A stretch of 64,000 bases of DNA. It comes from an uncultured Dechloromonas sp. (GTDB lineage: Bacteria; Pseudomonadota; Gammaproteobacteria; Burkholderiales; Rhodocyclaceae). Positions 25,240 through 35,452 of this stretch are shown piece by piece; positions within the stretch are counted from its first letter, which is position 1, and each line of letters begins with the position of its first letter. The stretch is from assembly GCA_964498255.1 (NCBI GenBank), contig CAZCGW010000010.1:2927-66926 (forward strand). The letters run 5' to 3'. The position numbers and the translations under genes are program-made. A model generated the notes under the pieces. That model was not told the origin of the DNA and did no database searches. It worked only from the letters and a program-made list of their open reading frames with translations.

Positions 25240-26037
25240 ATGAACCAAAAAAGCGACATCCTCGCCAAAATCATCGCCACCAAAGAGGTTGAGGTTAAAG
25301 CCGGCTATGCCAAGTGCGCGCTGGCTGAAATGGAAGTACTGGCTAAGGCGCAAGCACCTGCTCGAGACTTTGTCGGGGCTATCCGCGTAAAACTCGCCGC
25401 GCAACAACCTGCAGTCATTGCCGAGATTAAAAAAGCCAGCCCGTCCAAAGGGGTCATCCGCGCAGACTTTAAGCCGGCGGACATTGCCCAGTCTTACGCC
25501 GCTCATGGCGCAGCCTGTTTGTCGGTGCTCACGGATGTCGATTATTTTCAGGGCGCCAACAGCTATCTGCAAGCAGCGCGTGCTGCCTGTGATCTACCGG
25601 TGATCCGCAAAGACTTCATTATTGATCGCTGGCAGATTGCTGAAGCCCGTGCCATCGGTGCCGATGCCATTCTGCTAATTGTGTCGGCCCTCACCGATGC
25701 GGAGCTGCACGATCTGGAAGCCTATGCCTTCAGCCTCGGCCTGGCGGTACTGGTCGAAGTGCACGATGGTGAGGAGCTCACGCGGGCGCTGACCATGCAA
25801 ACGCCGCTGATCGGTATTAACAACCGAAACCTACGCACCTTTGAAGTGTCGCTCGATACAACGCTTAATCTTAAAGACCGTATCGGTGCCGAGCGCATCG
25901 TGGTAGCAGAGAGCGGCATCCTGGCGCCAGCCGACGTGCAGGTGCTGCGCAATGCAAACGTCAACACCTTCCTGGTGGGCGAAGCCTTTATGCGGGCGCC
26001 AGAGCCGGGCGTGGAGCTGGCGCGGCTATTTGCCTGA
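25240..26037 (+). CDS. trpC: Indole-3-glycerol phosphate synthase
   Basis: [36 protein letters not shown] and FLVGE; real start at 25240. Confidence 0.98.
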
Positions 26038-26054
26038 GGCATCTTAGCCCGCCA

Positions 26055-26105
26055 CGTTTGAGGGATCATGCAAACCCTCCAGATAGAAGCCATGGAAGCC
26101 GGAGC
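26055..26105 (+). repeat. Decayed copy of the MNT promoter and first codons (homologous to 27532-27582)
   Basis: 42/51 identical, ungapped; ATG at the same offset (26092 vs 27569); the -10 TAGAAT has decayed to CAGATA. Confidence 0.85.
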
Positions 26106-26122
26106 TAGGCGATGGCTGGTAG

Positions 26123-26509
26123 CTAAAAACAGTGCGCCGTGGCCTTTATCTCAATCTATTAACGTAGCCGCGTGTACAACCGGACGAAGCAGCCGGTCAT
26201 ATTTGCCGTAGTGCCATTGTTAGCCTACAAAAAGTACTGGGCGATGCAGGCGTAATGAATAACTTCACATCCTGGGTTACGTGCGTGGTACCGCTGCCGC
26301 CCGAGAAACTGTCTGACGGAAAACGGCATTCGGATTCGCGCAGCCGTATGACATTGCCGCCGTTAGATCTGGATTTTGAGCAATTGAATCAGGCTCGATT
26401 GGACAGGCTGGCAAAGAAAATGGGGCTGGAAAATGCTCTCAACCAATGGAAGGCAGGCAAAAAAGCCTACGACTTTGCACCCGGCACACGGTTTAATGCG
26501 CCGCGCTAA
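26123..26509 (+). pseudogene. Degraded AbiEi-like antitoxin, paralog of 28895-29620
   Basis: KTVRRGLYLN...PPEK is 48/61 aa identical to the intact gene, with an in-frame TAG at 26165-26167; a 176-bp internal deletion follows; the last 174 bp are 165/174 identical to 29447-29620. Confidence 0.9.
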
Positions 26510-26532
26510 CAAATTAGCCAAATGTTGCGCAA
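26510..26532 (+). repeat. 23-bp direct repeat, left copy (right copy 27405-27427)
   Basis: caaattagccaaatgttgcgcaa vs caaaatagccaaatgttgcgcaa, 22/23 identical. Confidence 0.9.
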
Positions 26533-26581
26533 AATTTAGCGCGCGATAGCTTAATAGTCTTGCTCATCATCATTCCACATG

Positions 26582-26609
26582 TTGCAGTTATTTATTAACT
26601 GCGTATAGT
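26582..26609 (+). promoter_or_regulatory. Promoter/operator of the ParE-type TA operon
   Basis: TTGCAG-N16-TATAGT overlapped by the perfect IR gcagtta-N5-taactgc (26584-26602). Confidence 0.6.
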
Positions 26610-26659
26610 TTAACTGTAAATCGCGTTGTGCATGCTGATTCAAACTACAGGAGCTGTCG

Positions 26660-27103
26660 ATGAGCGTACAAACAATAGATCACGCCACCTTATCCCGCCT
26701 TGTTGAAGCGGGGGCGGTCAGCGCGGCACAGGCTGTCGGTCAGCAGGGCGGTTGGTCTGTAGTGGTGAAATACGGGATGATCGAACGAACGCTGGCGGCA
26801 CAGCGTAATCGTCAGGTGCGCACGTTCCGCAAACTGGAATCGCTCGTCTCCTACTTGAAGGGCGTGGGCATTGGCCAATTTGTGGTGGATGCGCTTAATT
26901 ACGACCCCGTGAGCCAGACACCCGCAAAGCGGCCAGATCGGTCAGTGGCATTAAAACATGCGCATGAGGCAGCCGCTTACGACACATGGTTTAGAGCACA
27001 GATTCAAGCCAGTCTTGATGATGCGCGCCCGAGCATTGCAGCCGATGAAGCTCGCAAGGCGTTTGCTAAACATAAGGCGCTACTGATAAAGCCGGCAAAG
27101 TGA
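26660..27103 (+). CDS. Antitoxin with a PaaA2-like C-terminal segment and an uncharacterised N-terminal domain
   Basis: C-terminal YDTWFRAQIQASLDDARPSI resembles PaaA2-type ParE antitoxins; RBS aggag; GTGA overlap with the toxin. Confidence 0.75.
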   Translation: MSVQTIDHATLSRLVEAGAVSAAQAVGQQGGWSVVVKYGMIERTLAAQRNRQVRTFRKLESLVSYLKGVGIGQFVVDALNYDPVSQTPAKRPDRSVALKHAHEAAAYDTWFRAQIQASLDDARPSIAADEARKAFAKHKALLIKPAK

Positions 27104-27381
27104 TAAAGCTTGTCTGGCGTCCAATGGCTTTGACCGACCGCGAAGCCATCATGACGTTTATTGCTGAAGAGAGTCCAGTTGCAGCAATTGCGCTTGATGA
27201 TCAGTTTGAGGCAAAAGCTGAGCAGGCTAGGCTGCGTCCCACGCTCTATAAGCCAGGCCGGATTAAGGGCACTCGGGAAATTGTGGTGCAACCGAACTAT
27301 GTGATGATTTATGCCGTTGACAAAGATGCAGGAGAATTGACTGTGCTACGCGTCTTGCACGCAGCACAGCAGTGGCCGTAG
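27100..27381 (+). CDS. RelE/ParE-family toxin
   Basis: 93 aa; [37 protein letters not shown] and [12 protein letters not shown]. Confidence 0.9.
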
Positions 27382-27404
27382 CGAGATACCAGCAACTGTG
27401 CCTC

Positions 27405-27427
27405 CAAAATAGCCAAATGTTGCGCAA
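27405..27427 (+). repeat. 23-bp direct repeat, right copy
   Basis: 22/23 identical to 26510-26532; its 3' end overlaps the start of the trpC copy. Confidence 0.9.
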
Positions 27428-27512
27428 TGCCAACGTCAACACCTTCCTGGTGGGCGAAGCCTTCATGCGGGCGCCAGAGCCGGGGGTTGAGCTGGCAAGG
27501 TTATTTGCCTGA
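27421..27512 (+). repeat. Second copy of the trpC 3' end ([30 protein letters not shown])
   Basis: 85/92 identical to 25946-26037; all 7 differences are synonymous. Confidence 0.97.
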
Positions 27513-27534
27513 AGCTTATTCTATAGCTAAGCGT

Positions 27535-27562
27535 TTGACGGATCACGCAAACCCACTAGAAT
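27535..27562 (+). promoter_or_regulatory. sigma70 promoter of the MNT gene, probably leaderless
   Basis: TTGACG-N16-TAGAAT; the ATG starts 7 nt after the -10 element; no Shine-Dalgarno. Confidence 0.6.
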
Positions 27563-27568
27563 GAAGCC

Positions 27569-27901
27569 ATGAAAACCGAAGCCGAACGCGAAGCGGAAAT
27601 TATGAAGATGCTCGAAGATTTGTTTTCCGCCAGGAAAGCAGATCTGGTGAAGCATCGCGTGCTTCTATTCGGTTCGCGGGCGCGTGGTAATGCAAAGCGA
27701 CAATCTGACTTTGATCTTGCGATTGATGGGGATGAGCCTCTAGCTGTTAAGAAGTTTTATGAGATCGAAGAAGCGCTAGACGATTTGCCAACGCTGTATA
27801 GCTTTGATTGGGTGGATTTGGCCAAAGCAAATCCCCGCTTCCGTGAAGAGGCTATAAAGTCGGCAAGGGTCATTTATGAAGGCTGTTCTATTCGCAGTTA
27901 A
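27569..27901 (+). CDS. Minimal nucleotidyltransferase (MNT, MntA-like antitoxin)
   Basis: 110 aa with an intact GS-X10-DxD motif (FGSRARGNAKRQSDFD). Confidence 0.9.
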   Translation: MKTEAEREAEIMKMLEDLFSARKADLVKHRVLLFGSRARGNAKRQSDFDLAIDGDEPLAVKKFYEIEEALDDLPTLYSFDWVDLAKANPRFREEAIKSARVIYEGCSIRS

Positions 27902-28055
27902 AGAAATCTGGTTGGAGATGCTCGAAGCCAGAAACCGTATGTCGCATACCTATGATGCTAAAGATGCGCTTAAGGTCTATGAAAAGCTCCGGGGCTTTGT
28001 TGAACCGCTGCGAAACTTGGTTAACAGTCTCAAAGAATCCACCGCGACTCAATAG
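27876..28055 (+). pseudogene. Truncated HEPN (HI0074/HepT-like) toxin, 59 aa, absent from the ORF track
   Basis: Hand translation MKAVLFAVKEIWLEMLEARNRMSHTYDAKDALKVYEKL...; keeps the R-X4-H motif (RNRMSH) but is under half the usual family length of about 130 aa; overlaps the MNT 3' end. Confidence 0.8.
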
Positions 28056-28056
28056 A

Positions 28057-28111
28057 TTGACGTTTTTAACGTAGTCCGTTAGGATCAAAAAACGATCCTA
28101 ATGGACTACGT
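28057..28111 (+). promoter_or_regulatory. Promoter plus 18-bp inverted-repeat operator of the abiEii-abiEi operon
   Basis: TTGACG-N17-TAGGAT (28057-28085); IR arms 28069-28086 and 28094-28111 (17/18), ending 2 nt before the ATG. Confidence 0.8.
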
Positions 28112-28113
28112 GT

Positions 28114-28905
28114 ATGCAACTGCTTGACCCCAAACTCCTCGGTTTTCAACCGCTGGCCATCGCCCGCGACCGCTTCCAGCTGGCCTTCGTGCGCGCCGTC
28201 ATGATGGCGGCGAACGGCCGACTGGTGGTTAAAGGCGGTATGGCGATTCGTACCGAGCTGGATGGCGTTCGGATGACCGAAGACGTCGATTTTGATCGTG
28301 CTGCGGGTATCTCGCTAGAGGCAACAGCTAATGCCATCCGTCAGGGGCTTAAGCAGGCGTGTACCGTTTGTGGTGTGCATGACGCACAGCTAACGGAAAG
28401 CAAAAAAACCGCCGCAACACTACGTATCAAATTGCACGGCACCTTGCCTGAAGGTGGGGTCATTAGTTTTAAGGCAGAAGCATCCGGTCGTCACGCGGCC
28501 TTTGCTGACCGGTTCAAAACCATCGTCCCGGTCACGTCGCCAGCGTCCTATCGCGTTGCCCCCATGTCGATGAGTGTTTATCCGCTCAACGTATTGCTGG
28601 CAACCAAGATTGCAGCGCTCATGAGTCCGGAACGTAACGTCCCGCGAGACGTGTACGACATCAAACGTATGCTTGATGTTGGTGTTACGCCAGAGGGTTT
28701 GGATGTGCTGGTGTCTAAAACGCAATTGCGGGCTTTTGCCGATGAAGTCTGGGCCAAAGTCGGGGGCATCCATTACAACGCGTTCCAAACCGAGTTGCTG
28801 CCCTTCATTGGAAAAGCAGCGGCGGATGAAGTCACCGAAGCCGTCTGGTCAGCCTGGTGTACCGATGTAGCTGCTGCTATCGAAGGAATATGTCGTGGCG
28901 CTTAA
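28114..28905 (+). CDS. AbiEii/AbiGii-family nucleotidyltransferase toxin (type IV TA)
   Basis: LVVKGGMAIR, RMTEDVDFD, ATKIAAL and PRDVYDI. Confidence 0.85.
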   Translation: MQLLDPKLLGFQPLAIARDRFQLAFVRAVMMAANGRLVVKGGMAIRTELDGVRMTEDVDFDRAAGISLEATANAIRQGLKQACTVCGVHDAQLTESKKTAATLRIKLHGTLPEGGVISFKAEASGRHAAFADRFKTIVPVTSPASYRVAPMSMSVYPLNVLLATKIAALMSPERNVPRDVYDIKRMLDVGVTPEGLDVLVSKTQLRAFADEVWAKVGGIHYNAFQTELLPFIGKAAADEVTEAVWSAWCTDVAAAIEGICRGA

Positions 28906-29620
28906 ACTCGACCACATATTGCGGATGCTGCGTGATCCGGAGTGTCCGCGGGTGCTGACCCCCATGGATATCAAGCAATGGTTTGCCATGTCTGACATCG
29001 CGCTTTCTGAAGCCACACAAAAACGCTGGGTGGCAAGGATGCGCGATAGTGGATTAATCAAACCGGTGCGGCGCGGGTTGTATCTCAATGCACTGGCGCA
29101 GCCACCCGTTCAACCCGATGAGGCGGGGAGCTATCTGTGTCGTGGCGCAATTGTGAGTCTGCAAAAAGTATTGGGTGATGCCGGTGTGCTGAATAACTTC
29201 ACCTCATGGGTCACTTGTATTGTGGCGTTGCCCCCCGAAAAAAAAGAGGGCGAGAACAATCCATTCGGGTTCGCCCAGCCGAGCACAGGGAAAGTGGAAA
29301 CGCAGGTCGGATCTTTTAGCTTTCAGGCGCTGCCATTTTCCCTGGTGTATCAGGCAGGGGCTCTGGATGATTGTCTGGAAGTCTTACCCTATCAACGGGC
29401 GACACCCGAAAAAGCCTTTCTCGATTGGTTGTACCTGGGGTCAACATCGCGCAGCCATATGACGTTGCCGCCTTTAGATCTGGATTTTGAGCAATTGAAT
29501 CAGGCTCGATTGGACAGGCTGGCAAAGAAAATGGGGCTGGAAAATGCACTCATCCAATGGAAGGCAGGCAAAAAAACCTACGACCTTGCGCCCGGCGCAC
29601 GGTTTAATGCGCCGCGCTAA
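28895..29620 (+). CDS. AbiEi-like antitoxin/transcriptional regulator
   Basis: N-terminal wHTH-like region ending VRRGLYL, AIVSLQKVLGDAG and ATPEKAFLDWLYL; 11-nt overlap with the toxin stop. Confidence 0.75.
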   Translation: MALKLDHILRMLRDPECPRVLTPMDIKQWFAMSDIALSEATQKRWVARMRDSGLIKPVRRGLYLNALAQPPVQPDEAGSYLCRGAIVSLQKVLGDAGVLNNFTSWVTCIVALPPEKKEGENNPFGFAQPSTGKVETQVGSFSFQALPFSLVYQAGALDDCLEVLPYQRATPEKAFLDWLYLGSTSRSHMTLPPLDLDFEQLNQARLDRLAKKMGLENALIQWKAGKKTYDLAPGARFNAPR

Positions 29621-29652
29621 CCCAACAACCCCCATTCAATTTGCTGATTTGA

Positions 29653-29711
29653 TTGGACAAAATTAAAACTCCGGCTAAAATGCAATCAGTCTGCACTTTA
29701 GCCGGAGTTTT
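29653..29711 (+). promoter_or_regulatory. Promoter buried in a 15-bp perfect inverted repeat upstream of the AAA ATPase
   Basis: Arms 29665-29679 (aaaactccggctaaa) and 29697-29711; TTGGAC-N17-TAAAAT overlaps the left arm; ATG 3 nt after the right arm. Confidence 0.72.
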
Positions 29712-29714
29712 GTT

Positions 29715-30965
29715 ATGCCTAACACCGCCCACGCCTATCCGCGAACCCTGAGATCGTCCATACTCAAAGCCTCGCGGCATTTTCCCGTGGTAGCAGTCAC
29801 TGGCGCGCGGCAGGTAGGTAAAACGACCCTGCTAAAAGAGATCTGCGAGCCAGAGCGGCGGTATGTGTCACTGGACGATCCCTTTTTGCTCAAATCCGCG
29901 AAGGAAGACCCGGAGCTTTTCCTGCAGAACCATCCGGCGCCGCTGCTGATTGATGAAATTCAGTACGCGCCGGAATTGTTGCCCTTCATAAAAATGCGGG
30001 TAGATGCCGCAAAAAAGAAGGGGGAGTACTGGCTCACGGGCTCGCAGCCCTTTCATTTGATGCAGGGGCTGTCGGAATCTCTGGCTGGCCGGGTCGGCAT
30101 CCTCAACCTGCTGGGTTTTTCTAATCTCGAATCGCATGGCTTGGGCGCGTGCGCTGTAAGTCCATTTTTGCCGGAGCGAGCTTGGGTAGATGCGCAGCAG
30201 TCTTCGTGGAACGGCAAAAACCCGCAGTCGATTCAAGCGCTCTACGCGGCAATTTGGCAAGGTTCTTTTCCCGCCCTTGTGATAGACCCAGACATGGATC
30301 GAGATTTGTATTTTGCGAGCTATGTGCAAACCTACATCCAACGAGATGTCCGTCAACTCGCGAGGGTAGGAGACGAACAGGCATTTCTAAGATTTATACG
30401 ATCTGCTGCTGCAAGAACCGGGCAACTCCTCAATATGGCCGACTTGGCACGCGATGCGGACATTTCCCCGAATACCGCAAAAGCGTGGCTTTCAATATTG
30501 GAAGTCTCGGGGCTGATCTATCTACTGCAACCTTGGTATAGCAATCTTACGAAGCGGCTGGTTAAAACGCCCAAGCTCTATTTCATGGATACCGGTCTGT
30601 GTGCCTATTTGACTCAGTGGAGCAGCCCGGAAACGCTTGAGGCTGGCGCCATGAGCGGAGCCATCTTTGAAACCTGGTGCGTCGTAGAGATCATAAAGAG
30701 CTATTGGCACAACGGTCAGCGCGCACCGCTGTATTACTTTAGAAACCGTGACCAACAAGAAATAGATCTCTTGATTGAACGAGATGGCAATTTGCATGGT
30801 GTTGAATTCAAGAAAAGTGCAGCACCAGGAGAGGGGGCTGTGGCAGGTATCAAAGCGGGGATAAAGCTAGGCTTGCCTATAGGCAGTAGCGCCGTTGTTT
30901 GTATGCGCCAGGATGTGCTGCAGATTGCCGAAGGTGTCATCACGATTCCGGCAACGCAAATTTAG
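29715..30965 (+). CDS. AAA_14/DUF4143-type ATP-binding protein with a C-terminal PD-(D/E)xK-like motif
   Basis: Walker A GARQVGKT, Walker B LLIDEIQ, LTGSQ, SESLAGR, KTPKLYFMDTG and EIDLLIE...VEFK. Confidence 0.88.
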   Translation: MPNTAHAYPRTLRSSILKASRHFPVVAVTGARQVGKTTLLKEICEPERRYVSLDDPFLLKSAKEDPELFLQNHPAPLLIDEIQYAPELLPFIKMRVDAAKKKGEYWLTGSQPFHLMQGLSESLAGRVGILNLLGFSNLESHGLGACAVSPFLPERAWVDAQQSSWNGKNPQSIQALYAAIWQGSFPALVIDPDMDRDLYFASYVQTYIQRDVRQLARVGDEQAFLRFIRSAAARTGQLLNMADLARDADISPNTAKAWLSILEVSGLIYLLQPWYSNLTKRLVKTPKLYFMDTGLCAYLTQWSSPETLEAGAMSGAIFETWCVVEIIKSYWHNGQRAPLYYFRNRDQQEIDLLIERDGNLHGVEFKKSAAPGEGAVAGIKAGIKLGLPIGSSAVVCMRQDVLQIAEGVITIPATQI

Positions 30966-30968
30966 CCA

Positions 30969-30998
30969 AGTGTTGTTTTGTTGCAACAAAACAACACT
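30969..30998. repeat. Perfect 30-bp palindrome at the islet/porin boundary
   Basis: agtgttgttttgttg|caacaaaacaacact with no spacer, 3 nt after the ATPase stop. Confidence 0.85.
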
Positions 30999-31133
30999 CC
31001 CCGGCCAAATCTGTTGTATTTAAGTTGCTTTGCCCTCCCGGGTGTACCACAATCCACTCAACCACTCATCCGATGAGAGGTTCCTGGCAATAAAGCGCAA
31101 GCCGAGTTGCCATCAATCTTAAGGAGATCTCTA

Positions 31134-32342
31134 ATGCAAAAGAAAATCGTTGCTCTAGCAGTTGCCGGTCTGTCGACCGCTGCTTTCGCACAAACCAACG
31201 TAACTATCTACGGTGTTGCTGACGTTTCGGGTCAGGGCACAACCATCTCGGGTGCTAAAGATCCAGCAACCCCACAAACAGACGGTTCGACTTTCAACCT
31301 GCAATCGAACAGCTCGCTGATCGGCTTCAAGGGTACTGAAGACTTGGGCAACGGCCTCAAGGCTATGTTCCAGATGGAAACCTCGATGTATCTGAACGGC
31401 TCTGGCACGGGTGCTCAAGCTGGTACGGGTAATGTTTGGGGTACGAATGGTATGCGTGACTCTTACATCGGTGTGAACAGCAAATACGGTACGGCCATGG
31501 GTGGTTACATCTCGACACCGTTCCGTCAGTCGCTGAACAGCTTTGACGTAATGCCAGGCGCAACTGGTTCGGGTCAAATCGAAAACATGATCGGTGAAAT
31601 GCGTTTTGGCGGTTCGGGCCTGGCCTATGACTCGTCCATCCGCGCAACGGCTGTTGCCTACGCAATGCCGACGCTTTATGGCTTCAACGGCTCGATCGCT
31701 TACACGGGCTCGAATAACAATGGTACGACCAACCAAACGAGCGCAGGTAGCAGCTGTGGTACCGCCTCTAACGGCGAAACTTCGGCATGTACTTCTACGC
31801 CGCAAAGCGCTTGGGGCTTGAACCTGGGCTGGACTGGCTATGGTGTTAACGTGACTGGTGCTTTCCAGCAAGCTAACTACAACCTGTCTGGCGCTGGTGC
31901 CAACAACCTGGGCGATTTCACGAGCTACCTGGTTGGTGCGACCTATACCGGTATTCAGAACCTGAAGCTGTCGAACGTTTACGTTCGTAACTCGCTTGGT
32001 ACCAATGGTCCATCGACGCTGACAACTGGTGGTGCTGGCAAGATCAGCAACAACCAATACTGGTTTGGTGCTTCGTATCGTATGGGTAACTGGGAACCAG
32101 CCGCATCGGCTGGCTTCGCTAGTGACTTCGACGGTTCGAGCGTACAACAGTATGGCTCGAAGCAGTGGACTGCTCGTGTTGGTTACTATCTGAGCAAGCG
32201 TTCGCAAGTTTATGGTCTGGTTTCGAACATGAACAACTCGGCTAACCAGACTTACAAGCCAGGTCTGTCTGCTTCGGCAGCTTCACTGACTGGTGGCCAG
32301 AATGTGTTCACGTATGGTCTGGGTATGCGTACTTCGTTCTAA
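31134..32342 (+). CDS. Gram-negative general porin (betaproteobacterial trimeric type)
   Basis: Signal peptide MQKKIVALAVAGLSTAAFAQ, NVTIYGVAD, SLIGFKGTEDLGNGLKAMFQME, YYLSKRSQVY and C-terminal F; RBS aaggag. Confidence 0.95.
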   Translation: MQKKIVALAVAGLSTAAFAQTNVTIYGVADVSGQGTTISGAKDPATPQTDGSTFNLQSNSSLIGFKGTEDLGNGLKAMFQMETSMYLNGSGTGAQAGTGNVWGTNGMRDSYIGVNSKYGTAMGGYISTPFRQSLNSFDVMPGATGSGQIENMIGEMRFGGSGLAYDSSIRATAVAYAMPTLYGFNGSIAYTGSNNNGTTNQTSAGSSCGTASNGETSACTSTPQSAWGLNLGWTGYGVNVTGAFQQANYNLSGAGANNLGDFTSYLVGATYTGIQNLKLSNVYVRNSLGTNGPSTLTTGGAGKISNNQYWFGASYRMGNWEPAASAGFASDFDGSSVQQYGSKQWTARVGYYLSKRSQVYGLVSNMNNSANQTYKPGLSASAASLTGGQNVFTYGLGMRTSF

Positions 32343-32433: not shown

Positions 32434-34305
32434 ATGAATACACAACAGGCATTGCAGCTGGCATTCCAGCATTTGAATAGCGGTAACTTAGGGGCTGCCG
32501 GGCAGTTGTTTAATAACGTTCTGCAGCAGGAACCACAGAATTTTGCCGCACTCAATGGTCGTGGCTTTATTGCCCTCCAGCAGAATGTGTTGCCGCAGGC
32601 CCAATCGGATTTACAAGCCTCGTTGCGTATTAACCCCAAGCAACCCTTTGCCCACAAGATGTTGGGCATTGTTCTAGGGGCTCAGGGGCAATTTGATGCG
32701 GCCATGCAGGCCTTTGCTGCTGCTTTAGCGCTTGATGCCAAAGACGCTGAAGTCTATTTTAATCGTGCGAACTTCCGTTTTCAGGCAGGGCAGATTCAAG
32801 AGGCGTTAGCTGATCTGGATGCCGCCATTAAATTACGGGGCTCCTATCTGGAGGCGCGTTCGAACAGGGCCAATCTGCTCATACAGCAAGGCGACTTTGC
32901 CCGTGCTGAGAAAGACCTCGATTATCTAGTCAATAAAGTAACCAATAACCCGGATATATGGGTTGCACTAGGTTTAGCGCGCTACAAAGTGGGCAAGTTC
33001 AAAGAGTCCATGCAATGTAATGAGCGTGCGTTGCGCCTGGTGCCCAACCATCCGGATGCCTTATTGAACAGCTCTAGCGCCATGCATGACCAAGGTGAGT
33101 ATCCGGCGGCGCTTGATTGGGCCGAGAAAGCCATCGCTGCTACACCGCAGCGTGCTGAATCACATTACGCCAAGGCGCAAGCCTTGATGGCCATGCATCG
33201 CTTTGCAGAGGCCGTTGCAGCGTATTCGCGAGCCATTGAATTGAACCCGGCCTATGCCGAGGCCTGGATGGGTCGTGGTTTAACCAAGTCCCGCTTGCGT
33301 CAGTTAGACAGTGCGGTGCTGGATTATGACCAGGCCATTGAACTACGCCCCACCTATGACGAAGCCTTTTTCAACAAGGGCCACGTGTATCTGGAGCACC
33401 ATGATTTTGCCAAAGGCTGGGCCGATTATGAGCACCGCTTTGGTATGCCCTCATTAGGCATTACAAACTTACCGAATATTCCTGTGTGGCAGGGGGCGCC
33501 ATTGGCTGGCAAGTTGCTGGTGCGGGGTGAGCAGGGCTTGGGCGACCAGATTATCTTTGCATCAGTGTTGCCTGAGCTGTTGAAGATCGTTGATTCGGTG
33601 TGTCTGCAATTAGAGCCACGCTTGGTGCCGTTGTTCCAGCGCTCGTTCCCGAACGTTGAGGTAATGAGTCGGGATAAGAAGCCACCGGTGGATGTGGCGG
33701 CACAAATCTGTATTGGCAGTTTGCCGCAGTATTTCCGTAAGGATGTGGCGTCTTTTGCCGGTGCGCAGATGCCTTATCTGAAAGCAGACGCTGAAAAGAC
33801 GGCCGCCTTCCGTAAGGCGTTGGCGCCTAATGGTGAACGTTTCATTGGCTTGAACTGGCGTAGCTTCCGCAATAAGTACGCGAATGAGAAGTCGATGGGC
33901 TTGCTTGATATGGCGCCCTTCTTTAATCTGCCGGGCTGTACGGTTGTGAATCTGCAGTACGGGGATGTCAAAGACGAAGTGCGTGCCGCTGAAGCGGCCG
34001 GCCTGCACTTTAATAAAGCTGTGACGATTGATCTGACCAAAGACATTGATGGCATTGCCAGTCTGGTCGATGCCTGTGATGTGCTGGTGAGCACCAGTAA
34101 CACCACGGTACATATTGCCGGGGCTTTGGATAAGCCCGTGCTGCTGATGTTGCCTTATCGCTCTGGTAAGCTCTGGTACTGGTCTGAGGCTAAAGGCGAG
34201 GGTTCGCTCTGGTATCCGTCGATTCAGACCTTCCATCAGGGTGCGCAGGGGGATTGGGCGAGTACAATTGATGCCGTTAAAGAATCGCTCTTAGGCGTGG
34301 GTTAG
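32434..34305 (+). CDS. TPR-repeat protein with a C-terminal GT-B glycosyltransferase-like domain
   Basis: Many TPR units, then GWADYEHRF, W.G..L.GKLLVRGEQGLGD, STSNTTVHIAGAL and SLWYPS...Q...GDW. Confidence 0.85.
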   Translation: MNTQQALQLAFQHLNSGNLGAAGQLFNNVLQQEPQNFAALNGRGFIALQQNVLPQAQSDLQASLRINPKQPFAHKMLGIVLGAQGQFDAAMQAFAAALALDAKDAEVYFNRANFRFQAGQIQEALADLDAAIKLRGSYLEARSNRANLLIQQGDFARAEKDLDYLVNKVTNNPDIWVALGLARYKVGKFKESMQCNERALRLVPNHPDALLNSSSAMHDQGEYPAALDWAEKAIAATPQRAESHYAKAQALMAMHRFAEAVAAYSRAIELNPAYAEAWMGRGLTKSRLRQLDSAVLDYDQAIELRPTYDEAFFNKGHVYLEHHDFAKGWADYEHRFGMPSLGITNLPNIPVWQGAPLAGKLLVRGEQGLGDQIIFASVLPELLKIVDSVCLQLEPRLVPLFQRSFPNVEVMSRDKKPPVDVAAQICIGSLPQYFRKDVASFAGAQMPYLKADAEKTAAFRKALAPNGERFIGLNWRSFRNKYANEKSMGLLDMAPFFNLPGCTVVNLQYGDVKDEVRAAEAAGLHFNKAVTIDLTKDIDGIASLVDACDVLVSTSNTTVHIAGALDKPVLLMLPYRSGKLWYWSEAKGEGSLWYPSIQTFHQGAQGDWASTIDAVKESLLGVG

Positions 34306-34323
34306 CTGCTTGTCTCAGATGCT

Positions 34324-34997
34324 TTAACGTTTTCGGCGCTTCGAAGCCAGTAGTTCGGATCGTCCGATTGTTGCCTGAGTTGTTTCAGGGGGTTCAGGAT
34401 CTGAAAAGCCCGCCGCTTCGATTGTTTGGTCCAAGCCCCGATACGCCACCGACTTTTTCGGGTCGCTTAGAGATGCCATGCCCTCGTTCCACGCATGAAC
34501 CATTTGCTTGGCTGTCGTGCGCCATTCCGGCGCATTTTTTGCTGCTTCAATGACTTCTGCGCCGACCTCAACAGCCGATTCGCATAAGCGCTCAACCATG
34601 TCTGAATAATCCCGAGGGCTGATGCCAAGCCGCGTATTGAAAAAACGCTGCAGCGTTTTCCCCGGCGCCCATGTCTGGCGGCCATCAATCGACAGGCTGG
34701 GCGGGTTGTTCGCGAAACGCGGGTAAGCTTGGGTCGTTACTATGTCATAGACGGGGGAGAGCATTACATCGTCAAGCCCCGTGTAGCAAAGCGCAATGTT
34801 TTTGGCGTGGCAATCCGCGTTGCGCACCACGTAATTGGTCAGTGTATGCCAGCTAAATTGTTCAAACTGGGTGCGGGCATCGTTAGGCTGACGAAATCGG
34901 CCGCATCGACCCCCGGTAAATACTTGAGCAGATATTCGTCACGCTCACGGTAGAGCTGTGCGACAGTCTTGCCGCTTACCTGAACGTCAAGCTTCAT
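34324..34997 (-). pseudogene. hipA: HipA-family kinase toxin with a large internal deletion and frameshift
   Basis: ATG at 34997 coupled to the hipB stop gives 41 codons ending VSLTMP; these join out of frame at 34875-34881 to a C-terminal part with VRNADCHAKN and LSPVYD. Confidence 0.88.
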
Positions 34998-35257
34998 GGC
35001 GTGTCACTTTCCCGCTGTTCGGCTAGGATGTCTTCAACTGTGCGCACGTGTCCCCGTTTTACCAGTTTCAAGTCGTGCCCAGCCGCTTCGAGCAGGCGTA
35101 CCAGCGCGGACACGCTCATGTCGCCCTTGGTCAGATTCTCCATGCGAACCACGGTGGCTCGCGAAACGCCTGCCCGTTGGGCGATCTCGTCCTGGCTTAG
35201 CCGCGCTTCTCGGCGAGCGATCTTCAGTATTTTGGCAACATCTGAAAGCGTGGTCAT
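34994..35257 (-). CDS. HipB-like XRE helix-turn-helix antitoxin
   Basis: 87 aa; ARREARLSQDEIAQRAGVSRATVVRME; ATGA coupling to hipA. Confidence 0.85.
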   Translation of the reverse strand: MTTLSDVAKILKIARREARLSQDEIAQRAGVSRATVVRMENLTKGDMSVSALVRLLEAAGHDLKLVKRGHVRTVEDILAEQRESDTP

Positions 35258-35320
35258 TGTAGCCTCTGGGCACCATAAAACTAATTAACGGGTTTAAATG
35301 TAGCCCTTGGGTTCCATAAA
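35258..35320. promoter_or_regulatory. Two HipB-operator-like direct repeats
   Basis: 22-bp repeats at 35258-35279 and 35299-35320 (18/22), each TAGCC-N8-CCATA; same geometry as the E. coli HipB TATCC-N8-GGATA operator. Confidence 0.6.
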
Positions 35321-35452
35321 GTCAACCGATAATTCGGTTGATCAGGGAGATGCGTCATCTGGCTGCAGAAGTTATCGACCCATGCCTTGAGGCAGGTACA
35401 ATTGAACAAAAGGTTAATTGTGAAAAAAATAAGCTGAAAGAGGCGGTTGGGT

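Follow-up and report, generated by a model that had tools for sequence, protein, structure and literature searches.

The window, i.e., the whole stretch of 64,000 nucleotides that was analyzed, carries a housekeeping biosynthetic gene, trpC, and a porin gene separated by a series of small modules. The gene order trpG-trpD-trpC-porin-TPR is common to the window and to relatives L001, L084, L085, L098, and L101, and judged by trpC, the closest relative with a name is a MAG of an uncultured Dechloromonas (86% amino acid identity). The features of the interval and its flanks are as follows.

25240..26037, + strand: trpC, functional indole-3-glycerol phosphate synthase gene (Pfam IGPS, E = 1.8e-93), the proposed homology anchor
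25946..26037, + strand: tail A, the trpC 3′ end now in use
26055..26105, + strand: degenerate remnant of the MNT promoter and first codons, copy A
26109..26509, + strand: abiEi pseudogene, copy A (by translation and alignment to copy B)
26510..26532, + strand: motif 1, left bracket of the ParE cassette, directly after the abiEi-A stop codon
26660..27103, + strand: intact antitoxin gene with a ParC-like N-terminus and a PaaA2/RelB-like C-terminus (Pfam PaaA2, E = 2.8e-9)
27100..27381, + strand: intact ParE/RelE-family toxin gene (Pfam ParE_toxin, E = 1.3e-13)
27405..27427, + strand: motif 2, right bracket of the ParE cassette, whose last 7 nt, TGCGCAA, are the first 7 of tail B
27421..27512, + strand: tail B, displaced relic trpC 3′ end, L105-type allele
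27535-27562, + strand: predicted MNT promoter, copy B (TTGACG-16-TAGAAT)
27569-27901, + strand: MNT nucleotidyltransferase antitoxin gene (Pfam Polbeta, E = 1.5e-16; NCBIfam MntA)
27876..28055, + strand: HEPN (HI0074-type) toxin fragment (Pfam NTase_sub_bind, profile positions 75-125 of 126)
28057..29620, + strand: AbiE module with promoter, 18-nt inverted-repeat operator, and intact AbiEii and AbiEi
28069-28111, + strand: predicted AbiE promoter with the 18-nt inverted-repeat operator
28114-28905, + strand: intact AbiEii gene (Pfam AbiEii, E = 2.1e-16)
28895-29620, + strand: intact AbiEi gene (PADLOC AbiEi, E = 2.5e-13)
29621..30965, + strand: AAA_14/DUF4143 ATPase module, ORF 29715-30965 (Pfam DUF4143, E = 7.8e-50; PADLOC PDC-S01, E = 1e-108)
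30959..31133, + strand: ancestral trpC-porin spacer, homologous to the 185-nt trpC-porin spacer of L001
31134..32342, + strand: porin gene (NCBIfam PorB-like), right flank of the hotspot

Three segments are present twice, as the earlier note had described. The two trpC tails are identical at 85 of 92 nucleotides and encode one and the same 29-residue peptide, all seven differences being synonymous, and the longest exact match between them is 32 nt. A random change in this stretch is synonymous 27% of the time, giving seven out of seven a probability of about 1.1e-4, which argues for an allelic origin of the tails. The second segment, the MNT promoter with the first codons, is identical at 42 of 51 positions (26055-26105 vs 27532-27582). 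In the third, abiEi, a diverged middle (about 46-48 of 60-62 residues identical) is followed by a 3′ end with 166 of 175 nucleotides identical (26336-26510 vs 29447-29621). The units measure 0.56 kb (copy A) and 2.2 kb (copy B), and their proposed descent from one ancestral unit is corroborated by L101, L105, and L106, in which MNT-HEPN-AbiEii-AbiEi lies directly behind trpC.

Relative to copy B, its orthologue, copy A is eroded: its promoter is degenerate and its abiEi lacks the 5′ third (about the first 47 codons), carries an in-frame TAG at 26165-26167, and has lost 170 nt between GC(G/C)CAGCC microhomologies; the last shows that microhomology-mediated deletion also operates in the islet. 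Promoter scoring found none in 26055-26105, and copy B alone scored. Among the homologues compared (P0001-P0023), the middle of abiEi-A, only about 70% identical to copy B, belongs to a P0009/P0023-like allele class, while its 3′ end is like that of L105 (93-95%). The pseudogene is a mosaic, with a middle like the ~70%-identity homologues, e.g., P0009, and a 3′ end like L105; the high 3′ identity between the copies reflects this mosaic nature of copy A and is not simply conservation of a cassette end. In copy B, the HEPN gene retains only its last ~50 residues, including the RNRMSH motif, and is without a 230-nt stretch, since nothing in the window corresponds to L105 positions 1218-1447. Because HEPN is truncated, MNT may be an orphan antitoxin, and copy A and tail B are presumably dead scars. 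To judge from their intact ORFs and domains, AbiEii/AbiEi and ParE/PaaA2, in contrast, probably work as TA or abortive-infection modules.

The intact PaaA2/ParE pair, in which the toxin start overlaps the antitoxin stop, is bracketed by a 23-nt direct repeat, CAAA(T/A)TAGCCAAATGTTGCGCAA, at 26510-26532 and 27405-27427; for its 18-nt core, 0.12 matches are expected by chance. The antitoxin also matches RelB antitoxin and ParC in NCBIfam and has plasmid-borne homologues. Motif 1 repeats the beginning of the ancestral trpC-porin spacer, being homologous both to the L105 sequence after the abiEi stop and to 30959-30975. The spacer at 30959..31133 holds a third partial copy of the motif together with the porin promoter region, and a perfect 15+15 palindrome at 30969-30998. 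The pseudogene status of abiEi-A, the truncation of HEPN, and the 23-nt repeat around the ParE pair are additions to the earlier description.

The metagenome contig L105 represents a haplotype with copy B only, arranged as trpC-MNT-HEPN-AbiEii-AbiEi-spacer. It is 97.2% identical to the window over 27423-27885, 96.9% over 27903-29627, and 97.9% over 30967-31106, whereas its trpC is only 87.5% identical to the trpC of the window. The left edge of tail B is therefore a boundary between two lineages. Together with the synonymous-only divergence, this bears out the claim that each tail derives from a functional trpC allele, the two alleles belonging to different lineages. The heptamer TGCGCAA occurs in trpC (25946-25952), in the motif (26526-26532), and exactly at the junction (27421-27427), and from these positions the left edge of tail B is best read as an illegitimate junction with 7-nt microhomology to a piece of the old trpC-porin spacer. 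The motif 2-tail B junction is also found in L086, L089, L091-L093, and L095. In the sister haplotypes L089 and L095, tail B has decayed by a 1-nt deletion and clustered changes, indicating that it is not under selection. Between lineages, the trpC tail is 91-93% identical at the nucleotide level, trpC/trpD 78-83%, and the highly variable porin only 66-70% (vs L084 and L085). Because the tail is so unusually conserved, 92% identity between tails A and B fits a divergence of the two source lineages at roughly the species level. The earlier suggestion that one tail arrived from a relative thus holds as to transfer, given the two levels of identity to L105, and the relative was not a close one.

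The same site is variable in relatives and metagenomes. HipB/HipA is followed by a 36-nt trpC relic encoding 10 residues in L084, higA/higB by a 66-nt relic in L098-L100 (6 synonymous and 1 non-synonymous differences from the functional tail of the same contig), MNT-HEPN in L101/L102 by a relic that has decayed and measures about 54 nt, and an AAA ATPase by a 21-nt relic in L103/L104. One contig of run X6 has MNT-HEPN, a 64-nt tail, and an empty spacer in order, and in the distant lineage L005 an NTP_transf_8 gene lies between copies of a 288-nt trpC repeat, 99% identical. The relics of L098, L101, and the X6 contig have similar left edges, so that they may share events and be non-independent. 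Empty sites, in which trpC leads directly to the spacer and porin, occur in L001 and in one run X6 contig. The AAA ATPase module has no counterpart in the 97%-identical haplotype L105, and is present, absent, or elsewhere among relatives. Since cargo varies and tails recur, an invariant interval with no extra tails, which would have spoken against the earlier proposal, is not what the relatives display. No recombinase domain was detected in any ORF between trpC and porin (Pfam, NCBIfam, PADLOC), in the cargo of relatives checked (about 10 variants; Pfam), or in 20 other ORFs of the window, in agreement with the idea that no integrase is needed.

These observations are best explained, with a probability that we put at roughly 0.55, if the trpC-porin spacer is an integrase-free hotspot for small TA and defense modules in a wastewater/freshwater betaproteobacterial clade, filled by trpC-anchored insertion with an illegitimate join. 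DNA of a diverged relative, consisting of a trpC 3′ part and its own cargo, would pair with the resident chromosome through the conserved trpC, the only good homology for pairing, given a hypervariable porin flank. At its far end the donor DNA has no homology and would be closed by an illegitimate join using a short microhomology. Where this join falls within the resident trpC 3′ end, the incoming tail would become the working trpC end, and the resident tail with all resident cargo would be displaced downstream as a relic. By repeated insertions the islet would grow, each leaving the previous trpC end as a scar. In the window, the incoming block would comprise tail A, the already eroded MNT/AbiE unit, and the intact PaaA2/ParE pair, the resident block would be tail B with MNT-HEPN-AbiEii-AbiEi of an L105-like lineage, and the join would have used TGCGCAA. 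Which of the two blocks came in is inferred: the L105 contig stops at the trpC start, and the left homologous crossover was not located. The AAA ATPase also lies in the tail B block, although L105 is without it.

Insertion anchored in trpC is supported by the lineage boundary, the microhomology, the synonymous-only tails, the recurrence with varied cargo and relic lengths, the empty sites, the asymmetry of the flanks, and the lack of a recombinase. Several points run against it. The left junction of the ParE cassette (motif 1-TA) and the motif 2-tail B junction fall after the same nucleotide, which is unpredicted, and insertions are not always beside trpC: the AAA ATPase lies after abiEi, and ParE after the abiEi pseudogene. 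Furthermore, homology-facilitated illegitimate recombination (HFIR) in the laboratory mostly deletes recipient DNA and does not duplicate it (PMC3240628). The earlier view that cassettes are swapped or stacked with a core-gene tail as anchor is largely upheld, except for homologous recombination as the sole process: it can exchange cargo by itself but cannot give rise to a second tail.

A possible, though rather doubtful, alternative is Campbell-type insertion-duplication, in which a small DNA circle that bears cargo and part of the trpC tail (derived from a plasmid, from self-ligation of a fragment, or from a cassette that looped out) integrates by one RecA-dependent crossover in the tail and duplicates the homologous segment around the cargo, requiring neither an integrase nor an illegitimate step at integration. 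The predicted geometry is exactly cargo between repeats; the 288-nt, 99% identical repeat of L005 fits well, the PaaA2/ParE pair has its plasmid homologues, and such circles would arise by looping out as soon as a locus has two tails. When HFIR was tested by conjugation in E. coli, the duplications obtained, 109-950 bp long, were mostly due to single crossovers involving circular DNA (PMC3240628). However, repeats of 15-36 nt (L103, L084, the 23-nt motif, and islet 2) are at or below the usual RecA minimum, the tails of the window are only 92% identical with a perfect match of at most 32 nt, remnants of a plasmid backbone are absent from the islet ORFs (Pfam, NCBIfam), and the first circle with tail and cargo still requires an illegitimate join.

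Cargo flanked by repeats of a gene 3′ end, with the frame kept and mostly synonymous differences, is the classic signature of 3′-end integration, and tandem arrays with repeated att sites are known. On this basis, integrase-less satellites (CIME- or mobilizable-island-like) might have accreted at an att site in the trpC 3′ end with an integrase supplied in trans, which is improbable here. The left edges of the repeats lie at -21, -36, about -54, -64/66, -92, and -288 nt from the stop codon, so that there is no common crossover core, and unrelated sequences serve likewise as brackets, i.e., the 23-nt spacer motif and a 15-nt TPR gene-tail repeat in islet 2. No recombinase gene was found in the about 10 cargo variants and window ORFs tested, and no trpC tail in viral contigs.

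In-situ tandem duplication of the tail and unit between TGCGCAA copies, followed by divergence, erosion of copy A, and later ParE insertion, is already disfavoured and very improbable. The junction at a 7-nt microhomology resembles those of spontaneous tandem duplications and the abiEi 3′ ends are still 95% identical, but a non-functional tail would not gather synonymous changes only (P about 1e-4), the abiEi-A middle is of another allele class at about 70% identity to copy B, and L105 matches tail B and unit B at 97% and the window trpC at only 87.5%.

An assembly chimera of two co-occurring strains with one trpC tail each, conceivable for a metagenomic source with many related strains, is practically untenable because independent assemblies of several studies span both tails and depth is flat: the perfect repeat is just 32 nt, the motif 2-tail B junction occurs in contigs of at least 5 runs and 2 NCBI assemblies, the NCBI metagenome contig L086 (7640 nt, 99.99% identical) begins in trpE, continues over both tails with the TA pair in between, and ends in MNT, the Logan contig L091 from another study (1505 nt) matches 25957-27461 at 100% identity, the depth of 23.5-30 in run X1 over trpC, copy A, the TA pair, and copy B is not additive, and the sister haplotypes L089 and L095 share the junction yet carry independent mutations.

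Insertion anchored in trpC has counterparts in known systems. For the displaced arrays of Rhs/CDI and of Vibrio cholerae T6SS effector-immunity genes, HFIR has been proposed (Kirchberger et al., 2017, PMC5361080). There, as here, a conserved 5′ gene part is the anchor, an incoming 3′ end with cargo displaces that of the resident downstream, and orphaned 3′ fragments or modules accumulate in series without an integrase; here, in contrast, a housekeeping gene takes the place of the polymorphic toxin gene as anchor, the tails left behind are scars without function where the arrays have toxin domains, and the cargo consists of TA, Abi, and defense-candidate modules instead of immunity genes. As in HFIR (de Vries and Wackernagel, 2002; Prudhomme et al., 2002; Meier and Wackernagel, 2003; as summarized in PMC3240628), one end is homologous, the other is joined at a microhomology of 3-10 nt (here 7 nt), and inserts are about 1 kb. 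Unlike in the laboratory, where recipient DNA is usually deleted, several events here keep a recipient tail of 21-288 nt duplicated; the likeness concerns the presumed products alone, not the process.

The array also resembles integron cassette arrays, in which new small cassettes enter at the promoter-proximal end and move the older ones back, but it is without IntI, attI, and attC, each module has its own promoter, and trpC or spacer pieces make up the repeats. Elements such as e14 and phage 21 in icd, or ICE/CIME at the 3′ end of fda, supply an alternative 3′ end of a housekeeping gene and displace the original one, with mainly synonymous differences and possible tandem arrays; they have an integrase and a fixed crossover core, whereas here an integrase was not found and the repeat edges vary.

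Small islets between conserved genes are a known kind of locus, with which the minimal mobile elements of Neisseria are grouped. TA-only islets between core genes, free of mobile-element genes, have been described (Hayes and Van Melderen, 2011; Belot et al., 2026, PMC13617665), with fast turnover and erosion, including pseudogenized toxins, and a spread proposed to proceed via homologous recombination in the flanking core genes (PMC13617665), all of which the present islet resembles. Relics of flanking genes are not reported in those descriptions, whereas here they mark successive insertions with one illegitimate end. The trpC-porin islet is no new kind of element; the case fills in how islets of this known kind grow.

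Toxin-antitoxin (TA) and defence modules fill the 5.1 kb between the stop codon of trpC (26037), the IGPS gene and proposed anchor, and the porin start (31134). The surroundings are those of a core chromosome, with trpG-trpD-trpC, porin, TPR proteins and housekeeping genes. A recombinase domain was found neither in the islet ORFs (26038–31133; Pfam, NCBIfam and PADLOC) nor in any of the other window ORFs tested (20/20), and the 64-kb window contains no tRNA gene. The parts of the interval are ordered as follows.

Features of the trpC–porin interval
25946–26037, 3′ end of the working trpC (tail A)
following tail A, MNT promoter remnant and abiEi pseudogene (copy A)
26510–26532, 23-nt motif (motif 1)
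26660–27103, intact PaaA2-like antitoxin gene
27100–27381, intact ParE toxin gene
27405–27427, the 23-nt motif repeated (motif 2)
27421–27512, last 92 nt of trpC repeated (tail B)
following tail B, promoter and intact MNT gene
27876–28055, 59-residue HEPN fragment
28114–29620, intact AbiEii and AbiEi genes behind an operator-bearing promoter
29621–30965, AAA_14/DUF4143 ATPase gene
up to the porin, old trpC–porin spacer with a perfect palindrome
31134–32342, porin gene

The porin gene is hypervariable, with 66–70% nucleotide identity to relatives; the genes beside it show ~80%. Its variants in metagenome contigs include several in-frame-sized indels at 31238–31323 and 31669–31821, which probably fall in surface loops.

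Three blocks are present twice in the islet, just as the earlier note had described: the trpC tails (85/92 identical), the MNT promoter region (42/51) and the abiEi 3′ end (166/175). In the abiEi middle, ~46–48 of 60–62 residues are identical between copy A and copy B, the MNT-HEPN-AbiEii-AbiEi unit behind tail B. The longest perfect match between the two tails is 32 nt, and all seven of their differences are synonymous, which confirms a second point of that note; P is about 1e-4, because random changes in the tail are synonymous in only 27% of cases. An assembly chimera of two strains, the artifact that the note had kept in mind, is contradicted by contigs from independent assemblies, L086 (NCBI metagenome) and L091 (Logan, from another study), both of which cross the two tails at 99.99–100% identity, and by the unitig depth in sequencing run X1, which is flat (23.5–30) and non-additive. 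Contigs from several runs again contain the motif 2–tail B junction, and sister haplotypes L089 and L095 (97–99% identical) carry it with a decayed tail B. Since tail B in these haplotypes has a 1-nt deletion and a substitution cluster, it is a real, unselected relic. The changes there (L089 190–230 and L095 880–931, equivalent to window 27431–27465; the 1-nt deletion and ~7 clustered substitutions) coincide exactly with the 32-nt stretch identical between the window's tails; the cluster may have arisen by chance decay, through a patch of another trpC allele, or under selection against inter-repeat recombination.

Copy A is an orthologue of copy B that has eroded. Its promoter fails to score as a promoter, a fusion links MNT codon ~5 to abiEi codon ~47, and abiEi has an in-frame TAG at 26165–26167 and a 170-nt deletion between GC(G/C)CAGCC repeats. 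It is also a mosaic: the abiEi middle resembles an AbiEi class of ~70% identity (like homologues P0009 and P0023), and the last 175 nt with the adjoining motif are 93–95% identical to the related contig L105 and to copy B. Every AbiEi homologue at 67–95% identity is located at the trpC–porin locus, and L101, L105 and L106 carry the full MNT-HEPN-AbiEii-AbiEi unit directly behind trpC. The unit has therefore long resided at this locus, and the window carries two alleles of it.

The two alleles can be compared with L105, a haplotype with copy B only: trpC, MNT, intact HEPN, AbiEii, AbiEi and spacer, without copy A, ParE and the AAA gene. L105 is 97.2, 96.9 and 97.9% identical to the window at 27423–27885, 27903–29627 and 30967–31106, respectively, but only 87.5% identical in trpC. 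Because identity is ~97% from tail B rightward as against 87.5% in trpC, the left edge of tail B is a boundary between two lineages. By sliding identity, most of trpC is at ~88–92% with no return to 97%, and the L105 contig ends at the trpC start. Between lineages, identity is 91–93% in the trpC tail, 78–83% in trpC/trpD and 66–70% in the porin. As the trpC tail is unusually conserved, the 92% identity of tails A and B fits roughly species-level divergence of the source lineages; and as the porin is so divergent, trpC is the sole good homology flanking the site.

At this lineage boundary, the 7 nt TGCGCAA (27421–27427) are at once the last of motif 2 and the first of tail B, and the same heptamer is found in functional trpC (25946–25952) and in motif 1 (26526–26532). 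Judged from the sequence, motif 2 and tail B were joined at a microhomology. The 23-nt motif, a direct repeat bracketing the ParE/PaaA2 cassette, is a copy of the ancestral spacer start, matching 30959–30975, the sequence after the abiEi stop of L105 and the empty-site contig from run X6. Two other identities of the motif were rejected: an integron attC, as a GTTRRRY/RYYYAAC pair and IntI are both lacking and the motif is the ancestral spacer start, and a genome-wide repeat or DNA-uptake sequence, as only three local copies exist in 64 kb. Motif 1 passes into the ParE cassette (26526–26532), and motif 2 into tail B (27421–27427), at an identical point, following …TGTTGCGCAA, close to the middle of a palindrome, between TGTTGC and GCAA(CA) (TGTTGC/GCAACA type, from the spacer hairpin). 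This shared breakpoint may be due to a fragile hairpin tip.

These observations are most simply explained by an insertion with a homologous anchor at one end. The incoming DNA, consisting of the 3′ part of trpC and cargo, would pair with the resident chromosome through trpC, and its far, non-homologous end would then be joined at a microhomology; with the join falling inside the resident tail, that tail and its cargo would be shifted downstream. Copy A and tail B would then be scars of such events, and the short lengths of the relics, namely extra trpC 3′ ends downstream of cargo, agree with a join near the end of the paired region. The lineage boundary, the microhomology, the recurring relic tails and the lack of recombinase genes are shown directly. 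As to which block was the incoming one, by which route the DNA entered this uncultured organism, known solely from metagenomes, and what role RecA had, we infer rather than observe. The reading of the earlier note, recombination with a core-gene tail as the anchor, is thus largely right, except that an illegitimate join is needed and the donor is more distant than it had supposed.

A variable trpC–porin interval with extra trpC tails, as expected in that note, was found in relatives with differing cargo. The trpG-to-TPR interval is present in ~20 metagenomes (runs X1–X20).

Cargo and relics behind trpC in relatives and metagenome contigs (source; cargo; what follows)
L001 and a contig of run X6; empty site; 185-nt spacer, then porin
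L085; AAA ATPase alone; no relic
L084; HipB/HipA; 36-nt relic encoding 10 residues, its differences from the clade consensus all synonymous
L098–L100; higA/higB on the opposite strand; 66-nt relic with 6 synonymous differences and 1 non-synonymous, then AbiE
L101/L102; MNT-HEPN; decayed ~54-nt relic without stop codon, then AbiE
L103/L104; higBA, eroded MNT, AAA; 21-nt relic, then AbiE
contig of run X6; MNT-HEPN; 64-nt tail, then empty spacer
runs X6, X8 and X10; variants without MNT-HEPN
L005 (trpC 69% identical in amino acids, trpC-porin-TPR synteny kept); NTP_transf_8 gene; 288-nt trpC repeat, 99% identical, on both sides

The left edges of the relics vary in their distance from the stop codon (21, 36, about 54, 64/66, 92 and 288 nt). 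We count at least four or five independent insertion events in this series, although L098, L101 and the X6 contig may have relics of common origin. A deletion-type outcome is seen in L103, where the join to higBA lies ~20 nt past the trpC stop with no relic beside it and AbiEii is truncated. When the tail of each relative was compared by BLAST with the DNA downstream of it, L005 alone was detected; a peptide search and inspection by eye revealed the short or diverged relics of L084, L098, L101 and L103. No recombinase domain is present in the cargo of L005 and L084 or in the Pfam results for L098–L106, and the integrase-free growth proposed earlier is borne out in that no cargo examined has a recombinase. 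Among GTDB species representatives, no near-identical trpC tail was found except in an unrelated MAG (L081, with ung behind trpC). A phage or satellite origin was rejected, as the trpC tail has no match in IMG/VR, and so was a plasmid origin of the entire islet, as plasmid homologues are distant (65–73%) and exist for the ParE/antitoxin pair only. L005 (10492–12284) comes from an isolate assembly, SCN2, of a distant betaproteobacterium, with the trpC 3′ duplication around a single gene; its working trpC ends in cargo-derived codons (…LFQD and stop) as against the native …LFAGN and stop.

This series also bears on the alternatives. Single-crossover integration of a circular molecule carrying tail and cargo is a close variant of the one-sided insertion: it gives identical geometry, was the commonest product in an E. 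coli test (PMC3240628) and suits L005 well, but it poorly fits repeats of 15–36 nt. The varying repeat edges and the lack of an integrase anywhere examined speak against site-specific accretion by a trans-acting integrase. Duplication in situ is likewise disfavoured, as the tail differences are purely synonymous and the comparison with L105 contradicts it.

The proposed one-sided insertion has close relatives among known systems. Homology-facilitated illegitimate recombination usually deletes about as much recipient DNA as it inserts (PMC3240628). It requires RecA and DNA uptake by transformation or conjugation. As in that process, the islet cargo always lies directly after the stop of a complete trpC, the anchor is a trpC tail of 91–93% identity across lineages, and the distal end is joined at a microhomology of 3–10 nt, in the window the 7 nt TGCGCAA; the window differs in keeping the recipient tail as a 92-nt duplication, deletion-type outcomes being found in relatives such as L103. 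The displacement process described above has been proposed for Rhs C-terminal displacement and for the T6SS effector-immunity arrays of V. cholerae (PMC5361080). These arrays share with the locus a constant 5′ gene followed by displaced 3′ ends and modules (tails A and B in the window; higBA, eroded MNT, AAA, 21-nt relic and AbiE in L103), although here the anchor is trpC instead of a polymorphic toxin, and the cargo consists of independent TA/defence modules instead of an immunity gene. Integrase-mediated islands such as e14/icd and CIME likewise leave the target gene intact, with a direct repeat of its 3′ end flanking the cargo, but the islet has neither a recombinase nor a fixed crossover core. 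Unlike an integron, it lacks IntI, and its boundaries are fragments of trpC and spacer, not attC-like imperfect palindromes with GTTRRRY cores.

The cargo is partly intact and partly eroded. The AbiE module, of the type IV TA or abortive-infection class with AbiEii as nucleotidyltransferase toxin and AbiEi as wHTH antitoxin, is recognized by Pfam (AbiEii, E = 2.1e-16) and PADLOC (AbiEi, E = 2.5e-13), and both ORFs of the overlapping type II TA pair of ParDE/RelBE type are intact with PaaA2 and ParE_toxin domains; judged from intact ORFs and domains alone, AbiEii/AbiEi and ParE/PaaA2 are probably active. AbiEii lies upstream of AbiEi with an 11-nt overlap (28114–29620), in the same order in all relatives at the locus (L098, L101, L105 and L106); the canonical order is the reverse, abiEi-abiEii. 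In the MNT-HEPN pair (type VII TA, HI0073/HI0074-like), the HEPN gene no longer encodes an intact toxin, since only its last 59 codons are left and these match profile positions 75–125 of 126, and an intact MNT gene stands beside it. With 230 nt of the L105 HEPN gene missing from the window, MNT would be an orphan antitoxin on the basis of ORFs and domains. Such toxin-first erosion is typical of chromosomal TA loci. The AAA_14/DUF4143 gene, which matches the defence candidate PDC-S01 (PADLOC), is missing from the 97%-identical haplotype L105 and behaves as single-gene mobile cargo without its own recombinase. Three sites of this gene were observed: behind trpC in L085, behind abiEi in the window and, in L103 (818–2068), flanked by eroded HEPN and AbiE.

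A second islet, absent from L001, is inserted in a TPR gene 35 nt upstream of the stop codon (relative to L001), and the C-terminus of the TPR protein is replaced.

Features of the second islet
34271–35432, minus strand, eroded hipBA
34994–35257, minus strand, HTH antitoxin
minus strand, 52-aa fragment
34324–34830, minus strand, HipA C-terminal fragment
34257 and 35391, 15-nt repeat of the TPR gene tail, GGC(R)(R)GTACAATTGA, bracketing the islet

Its geometry is that of the trpC islet, with cargo between duplicated gene tails.

The arrival of small TA/defence islets is mostly assumed to occur by flanking homologous recombination. TA-only islets between core genes, without mobile-element genes, rapidly eroding and spread by such recombination, have already been described (PMC13617665). 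What is new here is the combination of a housekeeping gene as anchor, TA/defence cargo and a series of relic gene tails recording the events. Relic trpC tails of differing length are junction scars of single insertion events in natural populations, with the microhomology readable at one of them. Read in this way, the scars indicate that the event has an illegitimate join at one end or both, that the conserved gene end is the anchor, and that newer arrivals displace older modules downstream, where these then erode. The locus thereby ties the growth of TA islets to the displacement mechanism proposed for Rhs/T6SS arrays, and extra in-frame copies of the last codons of a core gene are a searchable signature, which could find and date integrase-free insertions genome-wide. 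A bolder idea, which we consider rather unlikely, is that the relic tails act as portable homology handles, making the locus an integrase-free, integron-like cassette system. If true, a module between two tails or spacer motifs could loop out through RecA, move as a unit of tail and cargo, and re-insert behind the trpC of relatives, so that host recombination alone would suffice to gain, shuffle and lose TA/defence modules at a housekeeping gene. Such a process may also act at other conserved gene ends, for example in the TPR gene 3 kb downstream.
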